From a virus (lineage: Duplodnaviria > Heunggongvirae > Uroviricota > Caudoviricetes): a stretch of DNA of 42,812 bases. Of the stretch, positions 5,826-42,280 are shown in pieces. The DNA is taken from IMG/VR virus record IMGVR_UViG_2872192773_000007. One strand, written 5' to 3'. How positions within the stretch are numbered: position 1 is the first letter of the stretch; each line of letters starts with the position of its first letter. Made by a program: the position numbers and the translations under genes. The notes beneath the pieces were generated by a model, which was not told where the DNA came from, did no database searches, and saw only the letters and a list, made by a program, of their open reading frames with translations.

Positions 5826-5917
5826 TTAAATTTAGCACTGTTAAAAATTTAATCCTTAACCGGAGGGATTTCTGCACCCTCAAATCATCAGGAGACCGCC
5901 CGAAAGGGCGGTAATGA

Positions 5918-6136
5918 ATGGTTACATTATTTAGAAAAAAATATCCGCGAAAGAGTAGAACAACAGAATTCCTGTTTCTCATTCTGTTTATCGTGTTGAT
6001 GACACCGATATCCCCGCAAATTTTTGTCTGGATAATCGGAAAAATAATTGAGCCAGTTATTGAATTGTATAACGACGTGGTATGGGCGTCATTCAACACA
6101 CTGCACAATAAAATTAATCCGTATAAGGAAAGCTGA
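5918..6136 (+). CDS. Hypothetical small membrane protein (one TM helix)
   Basis: 72-aa ORF with the hydrophobic stretch FLFLILFIVLMTPISPQIFVWIIG. It is visibly AT-rich and its stop lies 1 nt before the HNH start. The RBS is weak. Confidence 0.35.
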   Translation: MVTLFRKKYPRKSRTTEFLFLILFIVLMTPISPQIFVWIIGKIIEPVIELYNDVVWASFNTLHNKINPYKES

Positions 6137-11642: not shown

Positions 11643-12461
11643 ATGTGTCAGGTATTTGGTGTATCCAGGAGCGGTTATTACAACTGGGTACAGCATGAAC
11701 CCTCAGACAGAAAACAAAGTGATGAGCGGCTAAAACTGGAGATTAAGGTGGCACATATCCGCACTCGCGAAACATATGGAACCCGGCGGCTCCAGACGGA
11801 GCTGGCAGAGAATGGCATCATCGTTGGTCGTGACCGACTGGCACGTCTTCGTAAGGAGCTAAGGCTACGCTGTAAGCAGAAACGCAAGTTCAGAGCGACT
11901 ACGAACCCGAACCACAATCTGCCAGTTGCGCCAAATCTGCTGAACCAGACGTTCGCTCCTACAGCACCAAATCAGGTCTGGGTGGCGGACCTGACGTATG
12001 TTGCCACACAGGAGGGATGGTTGTACCTCGCTGGCATCAAAGATGTTTATACGTGTGAAATTGTCGGCTACGCCATGGGAGAGCGCATGACAAAAGAGCT
12101 GACAGGTAAAGCCCTGTTTATGGCGCTCAGGAGCCAGCGCCCACCTGCCGGGCTAATCCACCACTCTGATCGAGGTTCACAGTACTGCGCATACGATTAC
12201 CGGGTCATACAGGAGCAGTCTGGTCTGAAAACATCAATGTCGCGTAAAGGTAACTGTTACGACAACGCTCCGATGGAAAGCTTCTGGGGAACGCTGAAAA
12301 ATGAGAGCCTGAGCCACTATCGTTTTAATAACCGGGATGAAGCCATCTCAGTAATACGGGAATACATTGAGATTTTCTACAATCGTCAGCGTCGTCACTC
12401 TCGTCTGGGGAATATCTCCCCGGCAGCCTTCAGGGAAAAATATCATCAGATGGCTGCTTAA
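11643..12461 (+). CDS. IS600 OrfB transposase
   Basis: 272-aa ORF. Confidence 0.95.
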   Translation: MCQVFGVSRSGYYNWVQHEPSDRKQSDERLKLEIKVAHIRTRETYGTRRLQTELAENGIIVGRDRLARLRKELRLRCKQKRKFRATTNPNHNLPVAPNLLNQTFAPTAPNQVWVADLTYVATQEGWLYLAGIKDVYTCEIVGYAMGERMTKELTGKALFMALRSQRPPAGLIHHSDRGSQYCAYDYRVIQEQSGLKTSMSRKGNCYDNAPMESFWGTLKNESLSHYRFNNRDEAISVIREYIEIFYNRQRRHSRLGNISPAAFREKYHQMAA

Positions 12462-13222: not shown

Positions 13223-13299
13223 GGCCCTTTAGCTCAGTTGGTCAGAGCGAGCGACTCATAATCGCCAGGTCGCTGGTTCAAGTCCAGCAAGGGCCACCA
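13223..13299 (+). tRNA. tRNA with anticodon CAU (ileX/ileZ-like Ile2, or Met)
   Basis: Cloverleaf: acceptor GGCCCTT/AAGGGCC, anticodon loop CTCATAA, T-arm GCTGG-TTCAAGT-CCAGC, terminal CCA. It resembles E. coli ileX as I recall it. Confidence 0.85.
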
Positions 13300-13300
13300 A

Positions 13301-13377
13301 CCACCACTAGCTCATCCGGATAGAGCATCAACCTTCTAAGTTGACGGTGCGAGGTTCGAGTCCTCGGTGGTGGGCCA
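13301..13377 (+). tRNA. tRNA-Arg (anticodon UCU)
   Basis: Acceptor CCACCAC/GTGGTGG, anticodon arm TCAAC-CTTCTAA-GTTGA, T-arm CGAGG-TTCGAGT-CCTCG, terminal GCCA. Confidence 0.85.
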
Positions 13378-13379
13378 GC

Positions 13380-13455
<76 letters not shown>

Positions 13456-13458
13456 TAT

Positions 13459-13533
<75 letters not shown>

Positions 13534-14897: not shown

Positions 14898-14969
14898 TGG
14901 AGCACCTGTGTTGTTCTGAGGTGAGCATATCACCTCTGTTCAGGTGGCCAAATTCAGTGTGCCACTTCA

Positions 14970-15389
14970 CTACCCGGTAAGAGCATCAAGAACGCTCATA
15001 GTGACCGCTGTGTGCCTCTGGTCGATGGGGCCTATGGTTTTATATTGGCTGACTTTATGGCGCTTGTAGAGACCCGTAGAGGCGCTGACGGTGATGACGC
15101 TATGGTGTTCGATGGTCTGCGTCTCATGAAGAACGGTTACGGTGAGCAGGTGAGTAAATGGTTTAATCGGACGTTGTTGCCTAAAGTCCTCGTAGACCGT
15201 AGCGGCTTAGCGTTTCACTCGTTTAGACATACAGTTGCGACCCAGTTAAAACAACATGGGGTCGAGTTGGCGTATGCACAGGCGATCATGGGGCATAGTT
15301 CAGGGTCTATTACGTACGACCGTTATGCTAAAGAGGTCGAGGTTGATAGGCTGGTCAATGTGATGGCTGATGTTTATAAGGAGACCTAG
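14970..15389 (+). pseudogene. Tyrosine recombinase C-terminal catalytic domain (5'-deleted)
   Basis: The in-frame translation from 14970 is LPGKSIKNAHSDRCVPLV...LAFHSFRHTVATQL...GHSSGSITYDRY. This gives the R...HxxR...Y catalytic residues, while the core-binding domain is missing. Confidence 0.8.
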
Positions 15390-15477
15390 AGGAGACCATA
15401 GTCTAGGATGACACTTACTACAGACCTGTGTGGTCATGTTTTTGACTCATAGTTTTCTCTACTTATCAAGGGATAAT

Positions 15478-15500
15478 TAATACGACTCACTATAGGGAGA
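15478..15500 (+). promoter_or_regulatory. Exact consensus bacteriophage T7 RNA polymerase class III promoter
   Basis: TAATACGACTCACTATAGGGAGA is read directly at 15478-15500 and is preceded by AATT. The predicted +1 is G15495, with transcription towards the repeats and the Rha-like gene. Confidence 0.9.
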
Positions 15501-15697
15501 AGGGACACAAAAAGTTTTCTCTTCTAGGACAACTAACCGTAACTTATCGCATCCTTTCAGGGGCGGGATGACCAATTACAGACACCAAGCGTTCTACTTA
15601 AAGTGAATGCTTCCTGTGTGCTCTGGGTCAGTCGATAAGTGAATAGCAATAAGACACAATCATCTTAATTATGGTCTCTAGTCCCTACAGGGGCTTA

Positions 15698-15791
15698 ACT
15701 TAAAGTTAACTTAAAGACACAATTAAAGATTAACTTATAGTATTACTTAAAGTTAACTTAAAGACACAATTAGAGATTAACTTTAAGTATT
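15698..15791 (+). repeat. 47-bp tandem repeat x2 built from TTAAAG-type submotifs
   Basis: Unit 1 (15698-15744) is ACTTAAAGTTAACTTAAAGACACAATTAAAGATTAACTTATAGTATT. Unit 2 (15745-15791) differs at 3 positions. Confidence 0.9.
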
Positions 15792-15882
15792 AAATAAAAG
15801 ATTTAATTAAAGACCAATTAAAGATTAACTCTAAGGGAATACCTTAAGGGGTGATGATATTTATAATAATCAATCACCAAAC

Positions 15883-15935
15883 CTATAGGTCTTCTCTAGG
15901 GTCTCTCTATAGGTCTCTCTAGGGTCTCCTCTAGG
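15883..15935 (+). repeat. Array of about 11-bp CTCTA(T)AGGGTCT repeats
   Basis: The sequence reads CTATAGGTCTTCTCTAGGGTCTCTCTATAGGTCTCTCTAGGGTCTCCTCTAGG. Confidence 0.85.
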
Positions 15936-15954
15936 CATTACCCCCAGAAGCTAA

Positions 15955-15986
15955 CTCTATGGCCCTCTATGGTCCTCTATGGCCCT
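15955..15986 (+). repeat. 10-bp tandem repeat CTCTATGGCC x3
   Basis: CTCTATGGCC CTCTATGGTC CTCTATGGCC CT. Confidence 0.9.
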
Positions 15987-16031
15987 GTACGTCATTCTTT
16001 AGGATGCCCTGTAGTTTCGTATAGCCTGATG

Positions 16032-16070
16032 CCTAGAGAGACCCTAGAGTGGCTCCTAGAGAGACCCTCC
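16032..16070 (-). repeat. Inverted copies of the CTCTAGGGTCTC repeat
   Basis: CCTAGAGAGACCCTAGAG ... CCTAGAGAGACCCTCC is the reverse complement of the 15883-15935 units. The two sets form a dyad around the 10-bp triplet repeat. Confidence 0.85.
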
Positions 16071-16228
16071 CAGTAGCTCCGCACAGCTACATCGTCATCA
16101 TCATAGTATTCAATCTCAAAGTCATTCTGTTTGCATCCTGTTGTCCTGCTGGTCTCCCTTCGCTTGGGGACTTTGAGTAGGTCAGTGGGGGTGCGACTTC
16201 AGGGTGCAAACAAAAAGGAAATCAAGCG

Positions 16229-16393
16229 ATGTCTCAACAACCACAACAACCACAACAACCACAACAAGAAATCAGCATCATTAACCTCGACCAGCTTGTG
16301 TCCATGACCTCAGTTGAAATTGCTGAGCTGACAGGCAAGGAGCACCGAAATGTCCTTCGTGATATTCGTAAGATGCTCGAAGAACTTAACGCG
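16229..16393 (+). pseudogene. Rha-family phage regulatory protein, N-terminal 55 codons, truncated by IS1
   Basis: RBS AAGGAA, then MSQQPQQPQQPQQEISIINLDQLVSMTSVEIAELTGKEHRNVLRDIRKMLEEL. The segment TSxEIAELTGKxHxNVLRDIRxML is the Phage_pRha signature. IS1 starts at 16394. Confidence 0.7.
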
Positions 16394-16448
16394 GGTAATG
16401 CTGCCAACTTACTGATTTAGTGTATGATGGTGATTTTAAGGTGCTTGC

Positions 16449-17161: not shown

Positions 17162-18110
17162 AAAAAAAGCAACAGCGTATTTTGCACAGGAGTCGCTGAA
17201 AAATACGCGTTAATCGAACAATGGCGACAACAATTTCCCATTGAAGCGATGTGTCAGGTATTTGGTGTATCCAGGAGCGGTTATTACAACTGGGTACAGC
17301 ATGAACCCTCAGACAGAAAACAAAGTGATGAGCGGCTAAAACTGGAGATTAAGGTGGCACATATCCGCACTCGCGAAACATATGGAACCCGGCGGCTCCA
17401 GACGGAGCTGGCAGAGAATGGCATCATCGTTGGTCGTGACCGACTGGCACGTCTTCGTAAGGAGCTGAGGCTACGCTGTAAGCAGAAACGCAAGTTCAGA
17501 GCGACTACGAACCCGAACCACAATCTGCCAGTTGCGCCAAATCTGCTGAACCAGACGTTCGCTCCTACAGCACCAAATCAGGTCTGGGTGGCGGACCTGA
17601 CGTATGTTGCCACACAGGAGGGATGGTTGTACCTCGCTGGCATCAAAGATGTTTATACGTGTGAAATTGTCGGCTACGCCATGGGAGAGCGCATGACAAA
17701 AGAGCTGACAGGTAAAGCCCTGTTTATGGCGCTCAGGAGCCAGCGCCCACCTGCCGGGCTAATCCACCACTCTGATCGAGGTTCACAGTACTGCGCATAC
17801 GATTACCGGGTCATACAGGAGCAGTCTGGTCTGAAAACATCAATGTCGCGTAAAGGTAACTGTTACGACAACGCTCCGATGGAAAGCTTCTGGGGAACGC
17901 TGAAAAATGAGAGCCTGAGCCACTATCGTTTTAATAACCGGGATGAAGCCATCTCAGTAATACGGGAATACATTGAGATTTTCTACAATCGTCAGCGTCG
18001 TCACTCTCGTCTGGGGAATATCTCCCCGGCAGCCTTCAGGGAAAAATATCATCAGATGGCTGCTTAAAAAAAGAACAAATGGTAGTGTCCGCTATTGCCA
18101 GTACACCTCA
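17162..18110 (+). mobile_element. IS600, 5'-truncated (corresponds to IS600 positions 316-1264)
   Basis: It starts inside the A7 run at the end of orfA and ends at the normal right IR (...GTACACCTCA). The left 315 bp is replaced by IS1. Confidence 0.9.
17249..18067 (+). CDS. IS600 OrfB (orphan, no OrfA)
   Basis: 272-aa ORF, intact, but without orfA or a frameshift partner. Confidence 0.8.
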   Translation: MCQVFGVSRSGYYNWVQHEPSDRKQSDERLKLEIKVAHIRTRETYGTRRLQTELAENGIIVGRDRLARLRKELRLRCKQKRKFRATTNPNHNLPVAPNLLNQTFAPTAPNQVWVADLTYVATQEGWLYLAGIKDVYTCEIVGYAMGERMTKELTGKALFMALRSQRPPAGLIHHSDRGSQYCAYDYRVIQEQSGLKTSMSRKGNCYDNAPMESFWGTLKNESLSHYRFNNRDEAISVIREYIEIFYNRQRRHSRLGNISPAAFREKYHQMAA

Positions 18111-24675: not shown

Positions 24676-24931
24676 ATGGCAAAAATGGGGCAAAACGCTG
24701 TATAAGGGGCAAAAAAGGGGCAAAAAAGGGGCAAAAAAGAGTGGGTTATCGTAGCTTATTGTTGTCGCTGATAATGTTTAACATATTGAAAAATAAATAA
24801 AATACTTATGAGTCAGATAGTTGTGATTTTTGCCCTTACTTGTTCAGGTCGTATTGTTCTTTCTTTGTAATTTGTTGATTTTCTTGCATTATTTCAGTTC
24901 TCTGGTACTAAATGGGGCAAATTGGGGGCAA
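24676..24931 (+). repeat. Dispersed/tandem GGGGCAAA(A) motif array
   Basis: Direct copies start at 24687, 24706, 24717, 24728, 24914 and 24925. The middle three form a perfect 11-bp tandem (AGGGGCAAAAA x3). One inverted copy lies at 24828-24834. Confidence 0.85.
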
Positions 24932-30263: not shown

Positions 30264-31082
30264 ATGTGTCAGGTATTTGGTGTATCCAGGAGCGGTTATT
30301 ACAACTGGGTACAGCATGAACCCTCAGACAGAAAACAAAGTGATGAGCGGCTAAAACTGGAGATTAAGGTGGCACATATCCGCACTCGCGAAACATATGG
30401 AACCCGGCGGCTCCAGACGGAGCTGGCAGAGAATGGCATCATCGTTGGTCGTGACCGACTGGCACGTCTTCGTAAGGAGCTGAGGCTACGCTGTAAGCAG
30501 AAACGCAAGTTCAGAGCGACTACGAACCCGAACCACAATCTGCCAGTTGCGCCAAATCTGCTGAACCAGACGTTCGCTCCTACAGCACCAAATCAGGTCT
30601 GGGTGGCGGACCTGACGTATGTTGCCACACAGGAGGGATGGTTGTACCTCGCTGGCATCAAAGATGTTTATACGTGTGAAATTGTCGGCTACGCCATGGG
30701 AGAGCGCATGACAAAAGAGCTGACAGGTAAAGCCCTGTTTATGGCGCTCAGGAGCCAGCGCCCACCTGCCGGGCTAATCCACCACTCTGATCGAGGTTCA
30801 CAGTACTGCGCATACGATTACCGGGTCATACAGGAGCAGTCTGGTCTGAAAACATCAATGTCGCGTAAAGGTAACTGTTACGACAACGCTCCGATGGAAA
30901 GCTTCTGGGGAACGCTGAAAAATGAGAGCCTGAGCCACTATCGTTTTAATAACCGGGATGAAGCCACCTCAGTAATACGGGAATACATTGAGATTTTCTA
31001 CAATCGTCAGCGTCGTCACTCTCGTCTGGGGAATATCTCCCCGGCAGCCTTCAGGGAAAAATATCATCAGATGGCTGCTTAA
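30264..31082 (+). CDS. IS600 OrfB
   Basis: 272-aa ORF, with one substitution (EATSVIRE) relative to the other copies. Confidence 0.95.
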   Translation: MCQVFGVSRSGYYNWVQHEPSDRKQSDERLKLEIKVAHIRTRETYGTRRLQTELAENGIIVGRDRLARLRKELRLRCKQKRKFRATTNPNHNLPVAPNLLNQTFAPTAPNQVWVADLTYVATQEGWLYLAGIKDVYTCEIVGYAMGERMTKELTGKALFMALRSQRPPAGLIHHSDRGSQYCAYDYRVIQEQSGLKTSMSRKGNCYDNAPMESFWGTLKNESLSHYRFNNRDEATSVIREYIEIFYNRQRRHSRLGNISPAAFREKYHQMAA

Positions 31083-38155: not shown

Positions 38156-39871
38156 TTATGAATGGTGCAGTTGTGAGCCGTTTTCAGGCAATCGCAGGGC
38201 CAGTACCTCGTCAGTCAGCTGACGGTAAATCTGCTGTTCAGTCTCACGCATCACCTGTGCACCGGCTTCCCTCTCCGCATCCGCATCACCGCTCAGACCT
38301 GATGCTTTCAGCCGGTCAGCCACCCTCTGAGGGTACTCATTCTCCAGCATCTCATATTTCTGCTCTTCTGCCAGCGCCCAGCGGTCAGCTTCCGTACGCT
38401 TCAGTACAGCATGCCATGGTCCCCAGAGGGAGAACCAGTCCGTAAATTCATTCTCTTCACGGCTTCTGACCATGGCTTCGGCAGTGCGGAGGTCATTTGC
38501 TGTCACTCCCGACACGCCATAGAAACGCATTTCCTTCACGGCAGTGGAGAGCTGAAGTTTCTCTGCGAGCATGGTCTGGAAGGCCAGGTAGACTTCTATC
38601 TCATCCACAAAATGGAGAGTTCTGACTTTATCCCGGGCAATATCCTCCAGAATTTCGAGGCGGAACATTTCCCTGCCCAGGGAGAGCAGAGCGCCGGTAT
38701 CATTATCGAAAAGGCCTTCTGATGCCTGATGGACCAGGAGGGTTTTCCGGAGATTGTTCCATGTGAGCGCGACACGGTCCTCACAGCTTTCAGTGGCATC
38801 AGCAGCAACAGCGAAAGACTGCTGTCGAAGCTCTGCAGAGGTACTGAGTTTTTCCAGCCATGCAGCGACCTGTTCACGGAATCCGGAGGTATTGCGTGCA
38901 GAGACGGTATCGGAAAGGCGGTCAAGGAACGCGGAAAAGGTGTTGGCGTGCTCTTCATGTTCAAAAGCATGCCATATCTGTGATACATCAGATTGTTTGT
39001 TTTCCGGGAACCATGCTGTCACGGCATCAGCCAGGGGGCGATGGAGTGTATTCTGTTGTCCGTCACTCATGGAGAAGTAAATCCGTGGGCCGTGGTAGTC
39101 CGGTTGGGCGGTTTGTTGCGACAGAGACTCCCTGATCCGTGAGGACAGAGGATTGTCTTCGAGGATGATAGTGCAGGTCGGATCAAGGCTAAGTATATTT
39201 TCCGGAATGTGTGTGATGCGATTCTCGCGGCACCGGAAAAATATCTCGGTTTCCTCTGAGTGATGATTTCTTACAGGTACGGCTGGTAGGCTTTCCAGAA
39301 GATTAGTACTTACATCGAGCGCTTCCAGTGATTCAGGTAACTCAGGGAGAAATGTCAGCTGGTTATTTCTTACTGAGAGCACTTCCAGCGATGTAGGTAA
39401 TTCAGGAAGCATGGTTAGCTGATTGTTATCTGCATTAATATATTCCAGCAATGCAGGCAATTCAGGAAGCATGGTTAGTTGGTTGTTATCTACATCAAGA
39501 TGTTTCAGAGATGCGGGTAATTCAGGAAGTGTTGACAGGCGATTGTCACAGGCGTCAAGGTATTCCAGCGATGCTGGCAATTCTGGTAATGATATTAGGG
39601 CATTCTGAGTAATTTCCAGAACAGTGATTTGAGGTGGTAAGTTGTCAGGTAGCGAGGACAGATTTAAACGATTCAGTTGAAGCTCACTGAACTGATTGAT
39701 GAGACATTCTTTAAGTAGGGAGACCGCTTCATTCCGATTTTCACCGGGGAGCGCTTGTTTTTCCCATTTATCCCATGCTGAAAAGTAATCAGCATATGTA
39801 CCGGAAATAGTGTTATAAAAAGAATTTTGGGACAATGAAAAGTTATTATTTATCGGTAACATGATGGACAT
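38156..39871 (-). CDS. ipaH: IpaH-family type III secreted NEL E3 ubiquitin ligase (LRR + novel E3 ligase domain)
   Basis: 571-aa ORF. The canonical start is probably the MLPINNNFSL Met at 39862. It has LRR repeats (LPELPxSLxxLxxxxNQLTxLPE) and a conserved C-terminal domain with the catalytic-Cys motif ESCEDRVALTWNNL. Confidence 0.95.
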   Translation of the reverse strand: MSIMLPINNNFSLSQNSFYNTISGTYADYFSAWDKWEKQALPGENRNEAVSLLKECLINQFSELQLNRLNLSSLPDNLPPQITVLEITQNALISLPELPASLEYLDACDNRLSTLPELPASLKHLDVDNNQLTMLPELPALLEYINADNNQLTMLPELPTSLEVLSVRNNQLTFLPELPESLEALDVSTNLLESLPAVPVRNHHSEETEIFFRCRENRITHIPENILSLDPTCTIILEDNPLSSRIRESLSQQTAQPDYHGPRIYFSMSDGQQNTLHRPLADAVTAWFPENKQSDVSQIWHAFEHEEHANTFSAFLDRLSDTVSARNTSGFREQVAAWLEKLSTSAELRQQSFAVAADATESCEDRVALTWNNLRKTLLVHQASEGLFDNDTGALLSLGREMFRLEILEDIARDKVRTLHFVDEIEVYLAFQTMLAEKLQLSTAVKEMRFYGVSGVTANDLRTAEAMVRSREENEFTDWFSLWGPWHAVLKRTEADRWALAEEQKYEMLENEYPQRVADRLKASGLSGDADAEREAGAQVMRETEQQIYRQLTDEVLALRLPENGSQLHHS

Positions 39872-39990
39872 TCAGTTAAAGCCGATGGACAAATGGCTTT
39901 GTTAAAAGAAATAAGTAGGAGTTTTTATGAAGTTCATTCCATGAAATGAACTTCAGCACTTTTTTATTATAAAAGGACAAACAAAATTGG

Positions 39991-41461: not shown

Positions 41462-42280
41462 ATGTGTCAGGTATTTGGTGTATCCAGGAGCGGTTATTAC
41501 AACTGGGTACAGCATGAACCCTCAGACAGAAAACAAAGTGATGAGCGGCTAAAACTGGAGATTAAGGTGGCACATATCCGCACTCGCGAAACATATGGAA
41601 CCCGGCGGCTCCAGACGGAGCTGGCAGAGAATGGCATCATCGTTGGTCGTGACCGACTGGCACGTCTTCGTAAGGAGCTGAGGCTACGCTGTAAGCAGAA
41701 ACGCAAGTTCAGAGCGACTACGAACCCGAACCACAATCTGCCAGTTGCGCCAAATCTGCTGAACCAGACGTTCGCTCCTACAGCACCAAATCAGGTCTGG
41801 GTGGCGGACCTGACGTATGTTGCCACACAGGAGGGATGGTTGTACCTCGCTGGCATCAAAGATGTTTATACGTGCGAAATTGTCGGCTACGCCATGGGAG
41901 AGCGCATGACAAAAGAGCTGACAGGTAAAGCCCTGTTTATGGCGCTCAGGAGCCAGCGCCCACCTGCCGGGCTAATCCACCACTCTGATCGAGGTTCACA
42001 GTACTGCGCATACGATTACCGGGTCATACAGGAGCAGTCTGGTCTGAAAACATCAATGTCGCGTAAAGGTAACTGTTACGACAACGCTCCGATGGAAAGC
42101 TTCTGGGGAACGCTGAAAAATGAGAGCCTGAGCCACTATCGTTTTAATAACCGGGATGAAGCCATCTCAGTAATACGGGAATACATTGAGATTTTCTACA
42201 ATCGTCAGCGTCGTCACTCTCGTCTGGGGAATATCTCCCCGGCAGCCTTCAGGGAAAAATATCATCAGATGGCTGCTTAA
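41462..42280 (+). CDS. IS600 OrfB
   Basis: 272-aa ORF. Confidence 0.95.
   Translation: MCQVFGVSRSGYYNWVQHEPSDRKQSDERLKLEIKVAHIRTRETYGTRRLQTELAENGIIVGRDRLARLRKELRLRCKQKRKFRATTNPNHNLPVAPNLLNQTFAPTAPNQVWVADLTYVATQEGWLYLAGIKDVYTCEIVGYAMGERMTKELTGKALFMALRSQRPPAGLIHHSDRGSQYCAYDYRVIQEQSGLKTSMSRKGNCYDNAPMESFWGTLKNESLSHYRFNNRDEAISVIREYIEIFYNRQRRHSRLGNISPAAFREKYHQMAA

Follow-up and report, generated by a model that had tools for sequence, protein, structure and literature searches.

A variable-number inverted repeat array in the leader of a probable T7-promoter-driven tRNA-Gly mini-island

In this study, we analysed a repeat array at positions 15883–16068 of a 42,812 nt stretch of DNA (IMG/VR virus record IMGVR_UViG_2872192773_000007), which is referred to as the window throughout. 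The array lies about 400 bp downstream of a perfect T7 RNA polymerase promoter and mid-way along a leader of about 730 nt, which is free of open reading frames (ORFs), follows the 3′ fragment of an integrase gene and ends at a Rha-like gene. A first-pass annotation, made without database searches, had described the repeats as a dyad of iteron-like sites, with the product of the Rha-like gene as the nearest candidate binder. From a comparison of the leader with those of related elements, we propose, with a probability of roughly 0.55, a composite explanation in which the array consists of copy-variable, opposed tracts in the leader of a T7-promoter-driven mini-island located at a tRNA-Gly gene.

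The repeats of the array are real and lie far beyond chance. The left arm (15883–15938, plus strand) is made up of four to five tandem units of the form CTCTA(TA)GG(G)TCT with a terminal CTCTAGGCAT. Tandem Repeats Finder (TRF) reports for the tract at 15883–15935 a period of 12 with 4.1 copies and a super-period of 24 with 2.1 copies, CTCTAGGGTCT alternating with CTCTATAGGTCT, and the four to five direct units that had been read there are thus confirmed. The central tract (15955–15986, plus strand) contains three 10-nt units CTCTATGG(C/T)C and a degenerate fourth; the triplet announced at this place is present, with a period of 10, 3.2 copies and CTCTATGGTC as the middle unit, but it is not perfect, as its copies match at 90%. 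A unique and nearly invariant centre of 37 nt follows (15993–16029, plus strand; CATTCTTTAGGATGCC.TGTAGTTTCGTAT.GCCTGA), and it holds an inverted CATCCTAAAG, which is a unit of the T7 SRL type. The right arm (16029–16068, minus strand) begins with ATGCCT and continues with about three units (CCTAGAGAGACC / CCTAGAGTGGCTC), which are the reverse complement of the left-arm unit and have a period of 11 at 16032–16068. The inverted recurrence of the first repeat around 16032–16070 could be verified as well, since an exact 16-nt inverted repeat joins 15894–15909 to 16034–16049; another inverted repeat covers 31 nt at 84%. In 500 dinucleotide-preserving shuffles of 15875–16075, no exact inverted repeat was longer than 13 nt and no tandem self-match exceeded 23, whereas the array reaches 16 nt and 26/36, respectively. 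All three copies of the 12-mer CTCTAGGGTCTC that the window contains lie at the array, with 0.08 occurrences expected. It had also been stated that no ORF overlaps the array, and this holds for ORFs of at least 50 aa; the only ORFs across it are non-conserved and 20–43 aa long. A coding role for the array was rejected, as these ORFs are tiny and the indels are not multiples of three.

The promoter upstream of the array (15478–15500, plus strand) is a 23-nt T7 RNA polymerase class III promoter with the perfect sequence TAATACGACTCACTATAGGGAGA, and it is aimed at the leader and the cargo behind it. It is the single match without mismatches, versus none in 100 shuffles, and its score of 39.2 is the maximum of a matrix built from T7's 17 promoters. 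If the AATT upstream of it and the A behind it are included, all 27 of 27 positions agree with T7 phi13. The connection to T7 that had been raised for this locus has therefore gained in substance, with a perfect T7 promoter pointing into the array and a T7-origin-like AT tract just upstream of it. Within the leader, no sigma-70 promoters above chance or intrinsic terminators were detected, and the T7 class II pause signal ATCTGTT is absent.

Intact relatives of this region are found in E. coli chromosomes, where the tRNA-Gly gene glyU is followed by a gene for an integrase of 534–543 aa, about 1 kb of non-coding DNA and one to four small genes. These relatives are 4.2–6.4 kb in size and bounded at both ends by 23-bp direct repeats of the tRNA-Gly 3′ end, and they are therefore complete integrative elements, in which, as in satellites, an integrase and att sites surround a small element. 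One to three perfect T7 promoters are present in every glyU-branch copy examined, and of 5426 complete E. coli genomes, 58 have the promoter together with its initial transcribed sequence, always on the chromosome and never on a plasmid. At least about 1% of the complete E. coli genomes harbour the island, as does S. Typhi; in Klebsiella, Morganella, Rouxiella and Edaphovirga it is found with variants of T7-group promoters that are specific to the host. A second branch (L007, L008 and L013 of K. pneumoniae in our numbering of loci) adds promoters of the K11/przondovirus type. The promoters of this branch match 371 Klebsiella phage records at 8–11 places each, and the type found in L007 is that of Klebsiella przondoviruses. 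Between integrase and promoters, the second branch carries PD-T7-4 (PADLOC, E=8e-99), which is now named RAZR, a HEPN RNase that the T7 portal protein activates (PMC13017515); it was noted earlier to "often overlap an integrase gene" (PMC9519451). The promoter module is not described in these two papers, and no earlier description of islands with phage RNA polymerase promoters was found in the searchable literature. At L007 3795–4370 and L013 2960–3540, promoters of the T7, K11 and przondovirus types are stacked in one leader beside RAZR/PD-T7-4. A scan against Pfam, PADLOC and PHROGs, which covered the integrase and cargo proteins of L001, L002, L004, L007 and the window, returned integrase, KilA-N/Rha-like proteins, RAZR, DUF6971 and unknowns, and among these scanned proteins no Rep-type initiator or primase was identified. 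The island matches in IMG/VR appear, from their uncultivated virus genome (UViG) identifiers, to be provirus calls from isolate genomes.

The array varies among these relatives, further variants of which were recovered by using the Rha-like protein as a query handle. When six E. coli relatives are aligned to it, the window's left arm stands out as a 35-nt insertion, the relatives having only CCTATAGGTCTCCTCAAGGCAT at this place, and their right arm reads ATGCCTAGCGTGGCTCAGAGACCCT. Because the relatives have a single left unit and this right arm, the ancestral state would have been a short imperfect inverted repeat, GGTCTC..AGGCAT / ATGCCT..GAGACC, around the central tract and the centre. The unexpanded form, with one left outer unit, is present in about 50 complete E. 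coli genomes, in four of four metagenome copies and in S. Typhi; its right arm likewise has one outer unit, or two in S. Typhi. None of the 5426 complete E. coli genomes and none of the four metagenome copies has the expanded array, the array 24-mer is absent from IMG/VR, and a comparison of the array with sequenced phages gave no match even at E<=10. Across 16 loci, the left arm ranges from 2 to 9 units and the right arm from 1 to 13, the two varying independently, and the dyad region measures 141–350 nt. Three loci (L026–L028) combine about seven left units with a single right unit, and L023 has about eight and about 14. In L019, a Shigella-type copy with three tandem perfect T7 promoters (628, 749 and 869), the left arm is expanded and harbours an element of the IS3 insertion sequence (IS) family at 1290–2535, an insertion into the array that has been tolerated, and the right arm has about four units. 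The S. Typhi locus L022 has one unit on the left and two on the right, and L024 and L025, which share the first gene and have an unrelated leader, have none on either side. The central tract, (CTSTATGGYC), is present in two to four copies in the relatives and changes in 10-bp steps, giving match spans of 165, 177 and 187 bp, and the 37-nt centre is conserved in all glyU-branch copies. The array is missing altogether from the distant branch and from other genera that keep the rest of the leader.

Such variation is not confined to the array. The same leader contains GATGACCATAGGC in 1–13 copies, CTCTAA in 1–4 copies, a 47-nt AT unit in 2–4 copies and AATCAATACG in 1–3 copies. Because these other tracts also change their copy number, the array is one of several variable-number tracts, and the dyad seen in the window is derived and lineage-specific. 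Close relatives differ by whole units, as is the case for variable-number tandem repeats (VNTRs). On this comparison, the array is a hypervariable tract that would have grown from a short inverted repeat, rather than a conserved dyad iteron set.

Of the dyad iteron architecture claimed in the first-pass annotation, the 10–12-bp period and the inverted sets stand, and the conserved design does not, as the arms vary independently and are mostly unexpanded. We regard it as improbable that the array is an iteron-like site for the cooperative binding of a Rha/KilA-N-type protein, the integrase or a T7 protein. Period and inverted sets are in keeping with such a site, as are the AT-rich tract next to it, where an unwinding region would be expected (GC 17–22% at 15710–15830), the DNA-binding-type domains encoded by the first cargo genes (Rha, E=6e-10; KilA-N, weakly) and the fact that expansions were seen only in the lineage with a Rha-type first gene. 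However, copy number and symmetry are not conserved among homologues; the units are shorter than typical iterons, and no Rep-like initiator or cognate Rep protein is encoded by the islands examined. The Rha-like gene is not a consistent partner either: S. Typhi L022 and L024/L025 share the first gene without an expanded array or without any array, and KilA-N-type islands keep the basal repeat. When the comparison that had been suggested was run, repeat number did not track the neighbouring gene. As to the integrase, the array lies about 2 kb from both att ends, and because of this position integrase arm sites were rejected as unlikely. It had been anticipated that a binding site would be refuted if the repeats were not conserved in homologous elements. 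This is largely what was found for the arrays, but the short, presumably ancestral inverted repeat and the invariant centre are kept.

A role at the RNA level also had to be considered. T7 mRNAs are processed at RNase III hairpins, and the two arms might pair in a transcript made by T7 RNA polymerase and form a stem at which RNase III would cut, thereby separating or stabilising the cargo message. The predicted RNA fold of 15875–16078 contains a stem of about 40 bp (ΔG −87.3 kcal/mol, z = −6.2), structure extends to the leader as a whole (z = −7.2 for the window, −3.4 for L001) and the region lies downstream of the only promoter. However, the equivalent region of the unexpanded L002 folds no better than shuffled sequence (z = −0.14), so that the majority form, intact islands included, lacks a significant stem, and in L026–L028 a long left arm faces a single right unit. 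In a search of the leader against Rfam, no family was matched. The stability of the stem tracks expansion across loci and is seen only in expanded copies; as it merely follows expansion, the strong hairpin is not a conserved property, which makes RNase III processing a quite unlikely explanation. CTCTAGGGTCT units are common to both expanded arms yet missing from unexpanded arms, and this suggests that templated exchange between the arms has occurred as well as slippage.

The stretch between promoter and array bears a likeness to T7 replication origins. T7 origins are defined by a T7 promoter followed by an AT-rich region, and the leader offers a correctly oriented promoter with, downstream of it, an AT-rich repeat tract (15695–15830, plus strand) that resembles the origins of T7-group phages. 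This tract is composed of TTAACTTAAAG / AAAGACACAATTAAAGATTAAC units within a 47-nt super-unit (periods of 11, 23 and 47 by TRF), has a GC content of 17–22% and ends about 50 nt upstream of the left arm. Its 7- and 8-mers have their best T7 window at 5901–5961, which is the primary origin (z about 8), and the next at the phiOL region (321); in gapped local alignment, the best T7 positions are 5901 and 301–401 (z about 5.5). When the leader without its promoter was compared with phages by blastn, the only weakly significant matches belonged to phages of the T7 group, where they lie around 6.2 kb and close to the left end, all of them within the AT tract and with E-values down to 4e-4. T7 primase pentamers reach 21–30 per kb in glyU-branch leaders, an enrichment of 3–4-fold, versus 5.5–8.6 in shuffles, 10.1 in T7 and 6.7 in the whole window, and several of the unit families contain GGGTC or TGGTC. 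In addition, the GATGACCATAGGC tract directly after the integrase stop codon (L001 12399–12450, L002 12399–12565, window 15390–15410) is followed by opposite-strand units of the TGTGGTCC type, which is a second inverted repeat arrangement with T7 primase sites.

It has been reported that T7 replicates and transduces plasmids that carry its origin, pac site and terminal repeat, and that pac-bearing DNA impairs phage growth; packaging was described for plasmids with an origin and a concatemer junction (PMC13236587, PMC9860248). The array could accordingly mimic a packaging site or concatemer junction, so that the phage terminase would package the island as a satellite or be titrated by it, interfering with phage growth. 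The best T7 7-mer windows for the array in the window are indeed the flanks of the terminal repeat (39601–39700, z about 5), and the best gapped match of the L023 array is T7 39601 (z 5.7). However, the gapped alignments of other array variants peak elsewhere in T7, at positions that differ between variants, and the k-mer matches to the left flank, T7 174–333, all stem from one inverted CATCCTAAAG 10-mer in the centre. The terminal repeat itself (1–160 and 39778–39937), which is needed for phagemid transduction, gave no match to the module in a word-7 blastn search, and the lack of the array among phage records and of its unit in IMG/VR, mentioned above, argues in the same direction. A packaging mimic was not accepted for these reasons, and we consider it highly unlikely.

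Another likeness concerns the promoters themselves. With a promoter-core matrix (−11 to +2), the best scores outside promoters fall in the arrays, with 13.0 for the left arm (plus strand) and 7.9 for the right arm (minus strand), whereas 30 kb of background reach no more than 5.9, and L023 has eight core matches against a shuffle maximum of four. This might mean that the units are T7-type core fragments, directed rightward in the left arm and leftward in the right arm, and persist as relics of promoter copies or as weak traps for the polymerase. The super-period of 23–24 nt equals the length of a promoter, and these leaders often have duplicated promoters. Directly 3′ of the right arm, relatives carry a second promoter (L023 2769–2791, score 37.1; L001 13144–13166, score 24.7); this one is close to perfect in L023 and degenerate in the majority of E. 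coli copies, there are one to three copies of its upstream half AATCAATACG, and the segment is deleted in the window. However, the −17 to −12 element is missing from the units, which also deviate at positions −10 and −6, and their full-matrix scores are about 0, compared with at least 26 for real promoters. Core matches are confined to expanded variants, and as the unexpanded copies have none, the likeness is no evidence of ancestry and would derive from unit junctions. Decayed or decoy promoters are therefore a very unlikely origin of the array.

According to the explanation that we favour, the tracts would have expanded from the short imperfect inverted repeat in the Shigella flexneri/enteroinvasive E. 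coli lineage. The island would be silent until an infecting T7-group phage brings its RNA polymerase, which would then fire the promoter and transcribe the leader into the cargo. Promoter and T7-origin-like AT tract together may allow the T7 replisome to start DNA synthesis, and the tracts would add T7 primase pentamers (GGGTC/TGGTC) on both strands; a role of the array in T7-driven replication is possible. In the transcript or in a displaced strand, expanded tracts would also pair into the stem of about 40 bp. The lengths of the tracts would drift through replication slippage and template switching between the arms, and the exact number and symmetry of the units would be dispensable for the module.

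Several points weigh against this explanation. Whereas the AT-rich region of T7 directly follows the promoter, the one in the leader begins about 195 nt after +1. The count of primase sites is inflated by the repeated units and there is no enrichment in the L007 branch; several unit types have no primase site, and the unexpanded dyads have one or two. In addition, both arms have been expanded in several lineages, which could mean that the stem has been selected rather than that it drifts, and the invariant 37-nt centre suggests some function.

A bolder interpretation, which we consider rather unlikely, is that the leader is a cis-acting hijack cassette of a new class of mini-islands that parasitise virulent T7-group phages or defend against them. 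Here, stacked phage-polymerase promoters would sense infection, the AT tract would recruit the phage replisome and thereby amplify the island, and the arrays would be loading or recognition sites for the primase-helicase or the small terminase that diversify in an arms race.

Besides promoter, AT tract and array, the leader contains further conserved blocks. Block A (15548–15570, plus strand; CGCATCCTTTCAGGGGCGGGATG) is the most widely conserved leader element; it is found exactly in Klebsiella, Morganella, Rouxiella, Edaphovirga and Enterobacteriaceae RIT691 and in three IMG/VR contigs, and it has no match in Rfam. The copies outside E. coli always lie downstream of T7-group promoter variants, which differ from genus to genus, and around block A, which spans at least five Enterobacterales genera (L010–L014), the leader diverges. 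Block B (15626–15646, plus strand; GGTCAGTCGATAAGTGAATAG) is shared by the two island branches and by further genera. A small hairpin (15850–15878, plus strand; GGTGATGA...TCAATCACC) is invariant or nearly so in alignment A1 and also occurs in L007 and L013. Block D (16105–16215, plus strand) is conserved across branches and genera and ends at the ribosome-binding site of the first cargo gene; it is shared by L024 and L025. It may form an RNA stem, as RNAalifold predicts a consensus of 30 pairs, one without double-sided covariation. Over the region 16105–16228 (alignment A2), a long-range helix with three compensatory states (GTTTGCA/TGCAAAC, ATCTGC/GCAGAT and AAATATGCA/TGCATATTT) was noticed by eye only. 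The unrelated leaders of L024 and L025 have another promoter family, with tandem copies in L024 at 1550–1640 (ACTATCACTATAGGGGGAC x3, then ..CACTATAGGGAGAGACC) and two separate single copies in L025 at 1915–1935 and 2335–2350.

With regard to its wider context, the window is not the end of a T7-like phage genome, a possibility that was ruled out, as it is a chromosomal, IS-riddled region of Shigella type whose phage matches are to IS1 only. It contains lambdoid-prophage remnants and sitABCD. Because near-identical truncated Rha-like proteins are present in Shigella flexneri, the window is, to judge by these fragments, Shigella flexneri DNA. The tyrosine integrase 3′ fragment (14970–15389, plus strand), assigned by homology and Pfam, comprises about 139 C-terminal codons and is homologous to the 3′ end of the site-specific integrase genes that follow tRNA-Gly in E. 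coli, Phage_integrase being the Pfam assignment of the full-length relative. The remainder of the gene was lost to an IS3-family insertion that ends at 14969, and with the integrase truncated, no att site of the island was found in the window. At the other end, the N-terminal part of the Rha-family first cargo gene (16229–16389, plus strand) is truncated by IS1: the ORF at 16229–16420 encodes a Rha-family N terminus (PF09669), and IS1 homology starts at about 16390. Searches for a full-length homologue of this gene retrieved only truncated or short copies. Its N terminus carries a QQP repeat, encoded by (CAACAACCA) x3.7 at 16235–16267, and protein lengths of 51–63 aa among S. flexneri copies suggest that the QQP copy number varies. 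As both the integrase and the cargo gene have been cut by IS elements, the island is here a decayed fragment that is already dead, and the array in the window is therefore most likely free of selection and evolving neutrally.

Further observations concern the surroundings of the island. Four tRNA genes (Met, Arg, Thr and Gly-tcc) are located at 13223–13533, a short way upstream of the IS responsible for the truncated integrase. Five ORFs of 272 aa (480–1298, 11643–12461, 17249–18067, 30264–31082 and 41462–42280) include at least two identical copies of an IS3-family transposase orfB, and more IS1 and IS3-family copies point to heavy IS-driven rearrangement. Two tandem repeats are unrelated to the array, namely a perfect (AAGGGGCAAAA) x3.3 at 24704–24739 and a 60-nt unit repeated 3.5 times at 39317–39529.

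The setting of the array matters more than the array itself. A compact tRNA-Gly island is spread across Enterobacterales with its cargo wired to T7-group promoters, the type of promoter fits the host genus, and RAZR/PD-T7-4, a gene whose action against T7 has been validated by experiment, is often a neighbour. If the proposed explanation is true, this would be a natural case of a cell or mobile element that uses the polymerase of a virulent phage as an infection sensor, with the phage replisome possibly serving as an amplifier of the island. It would also supply cis elements that can be tested, and the repeat tracts would be natural copy-number variants.

The module shows similarities to several known systems. 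Like the primary origin of T7 (phi1.1A/phi1.1B and AT region) and phiOL, the island has one to three T7 promoters and then an AT tract (78–83% AT), which shares k-mers and alignments with T7 5900–6010 and 300–470 and with the equivalent regions of other T7-group phages, and primase sites, in numbers inflated by the repeated units, cluster near it. Unlike in T7, however, the AT tract comes about 195 nt after the start site and is itself a variable 47-nt repeat, and the element is chromosomal and without phage genes. The array also resembles the T7 SRL and SRR repeats in that it is non-coding, has units of 7–12 nt in direct and inverted orientation and lies next to T7 promoters, and a common vocabulary (CCTATAGG, AGGGTCT, TAGAGAG, CCTAAAG) is used in both. 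However, the island has no terminal repeat, and homology is not demonstrable, as the best T7 windows differ for each variant. The origins of Staphylococcus aureus pathogenicity islands (SaPIs) and other phage-inducible chromosomal islands (PICIs) likewise combine short repeats with a neighbouring AT-rich tract, in small islands that have an integrase and respond to phage, but SaPI origins have a cognate rep/pri gene beside them and fixed iterons, while a rep gene is lacking here and nothing constrains the copy number. As a very small element that depends on or responds to phage and carries anti-phage cargo, the island is comparable to PICMIs (phage-inducible chromosomal minimalist islands) and to the defence hotspots of P4-like satellites. 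It differs from them in that induction is apparently hard-wired through promoters for single-subunit phage RNA polymerases, and in that no replication, excision-control or packaging genes were identified in it. Finally, whole-unit differences among close relatives and the presence of several tracts within 1 kb are features of bacterial VNTR and contingency tracts. In contrast to these, the array is non-coding, has units of 10–13 nt arranged as an inverted pair and is placed in a leader for a phage polymerase.

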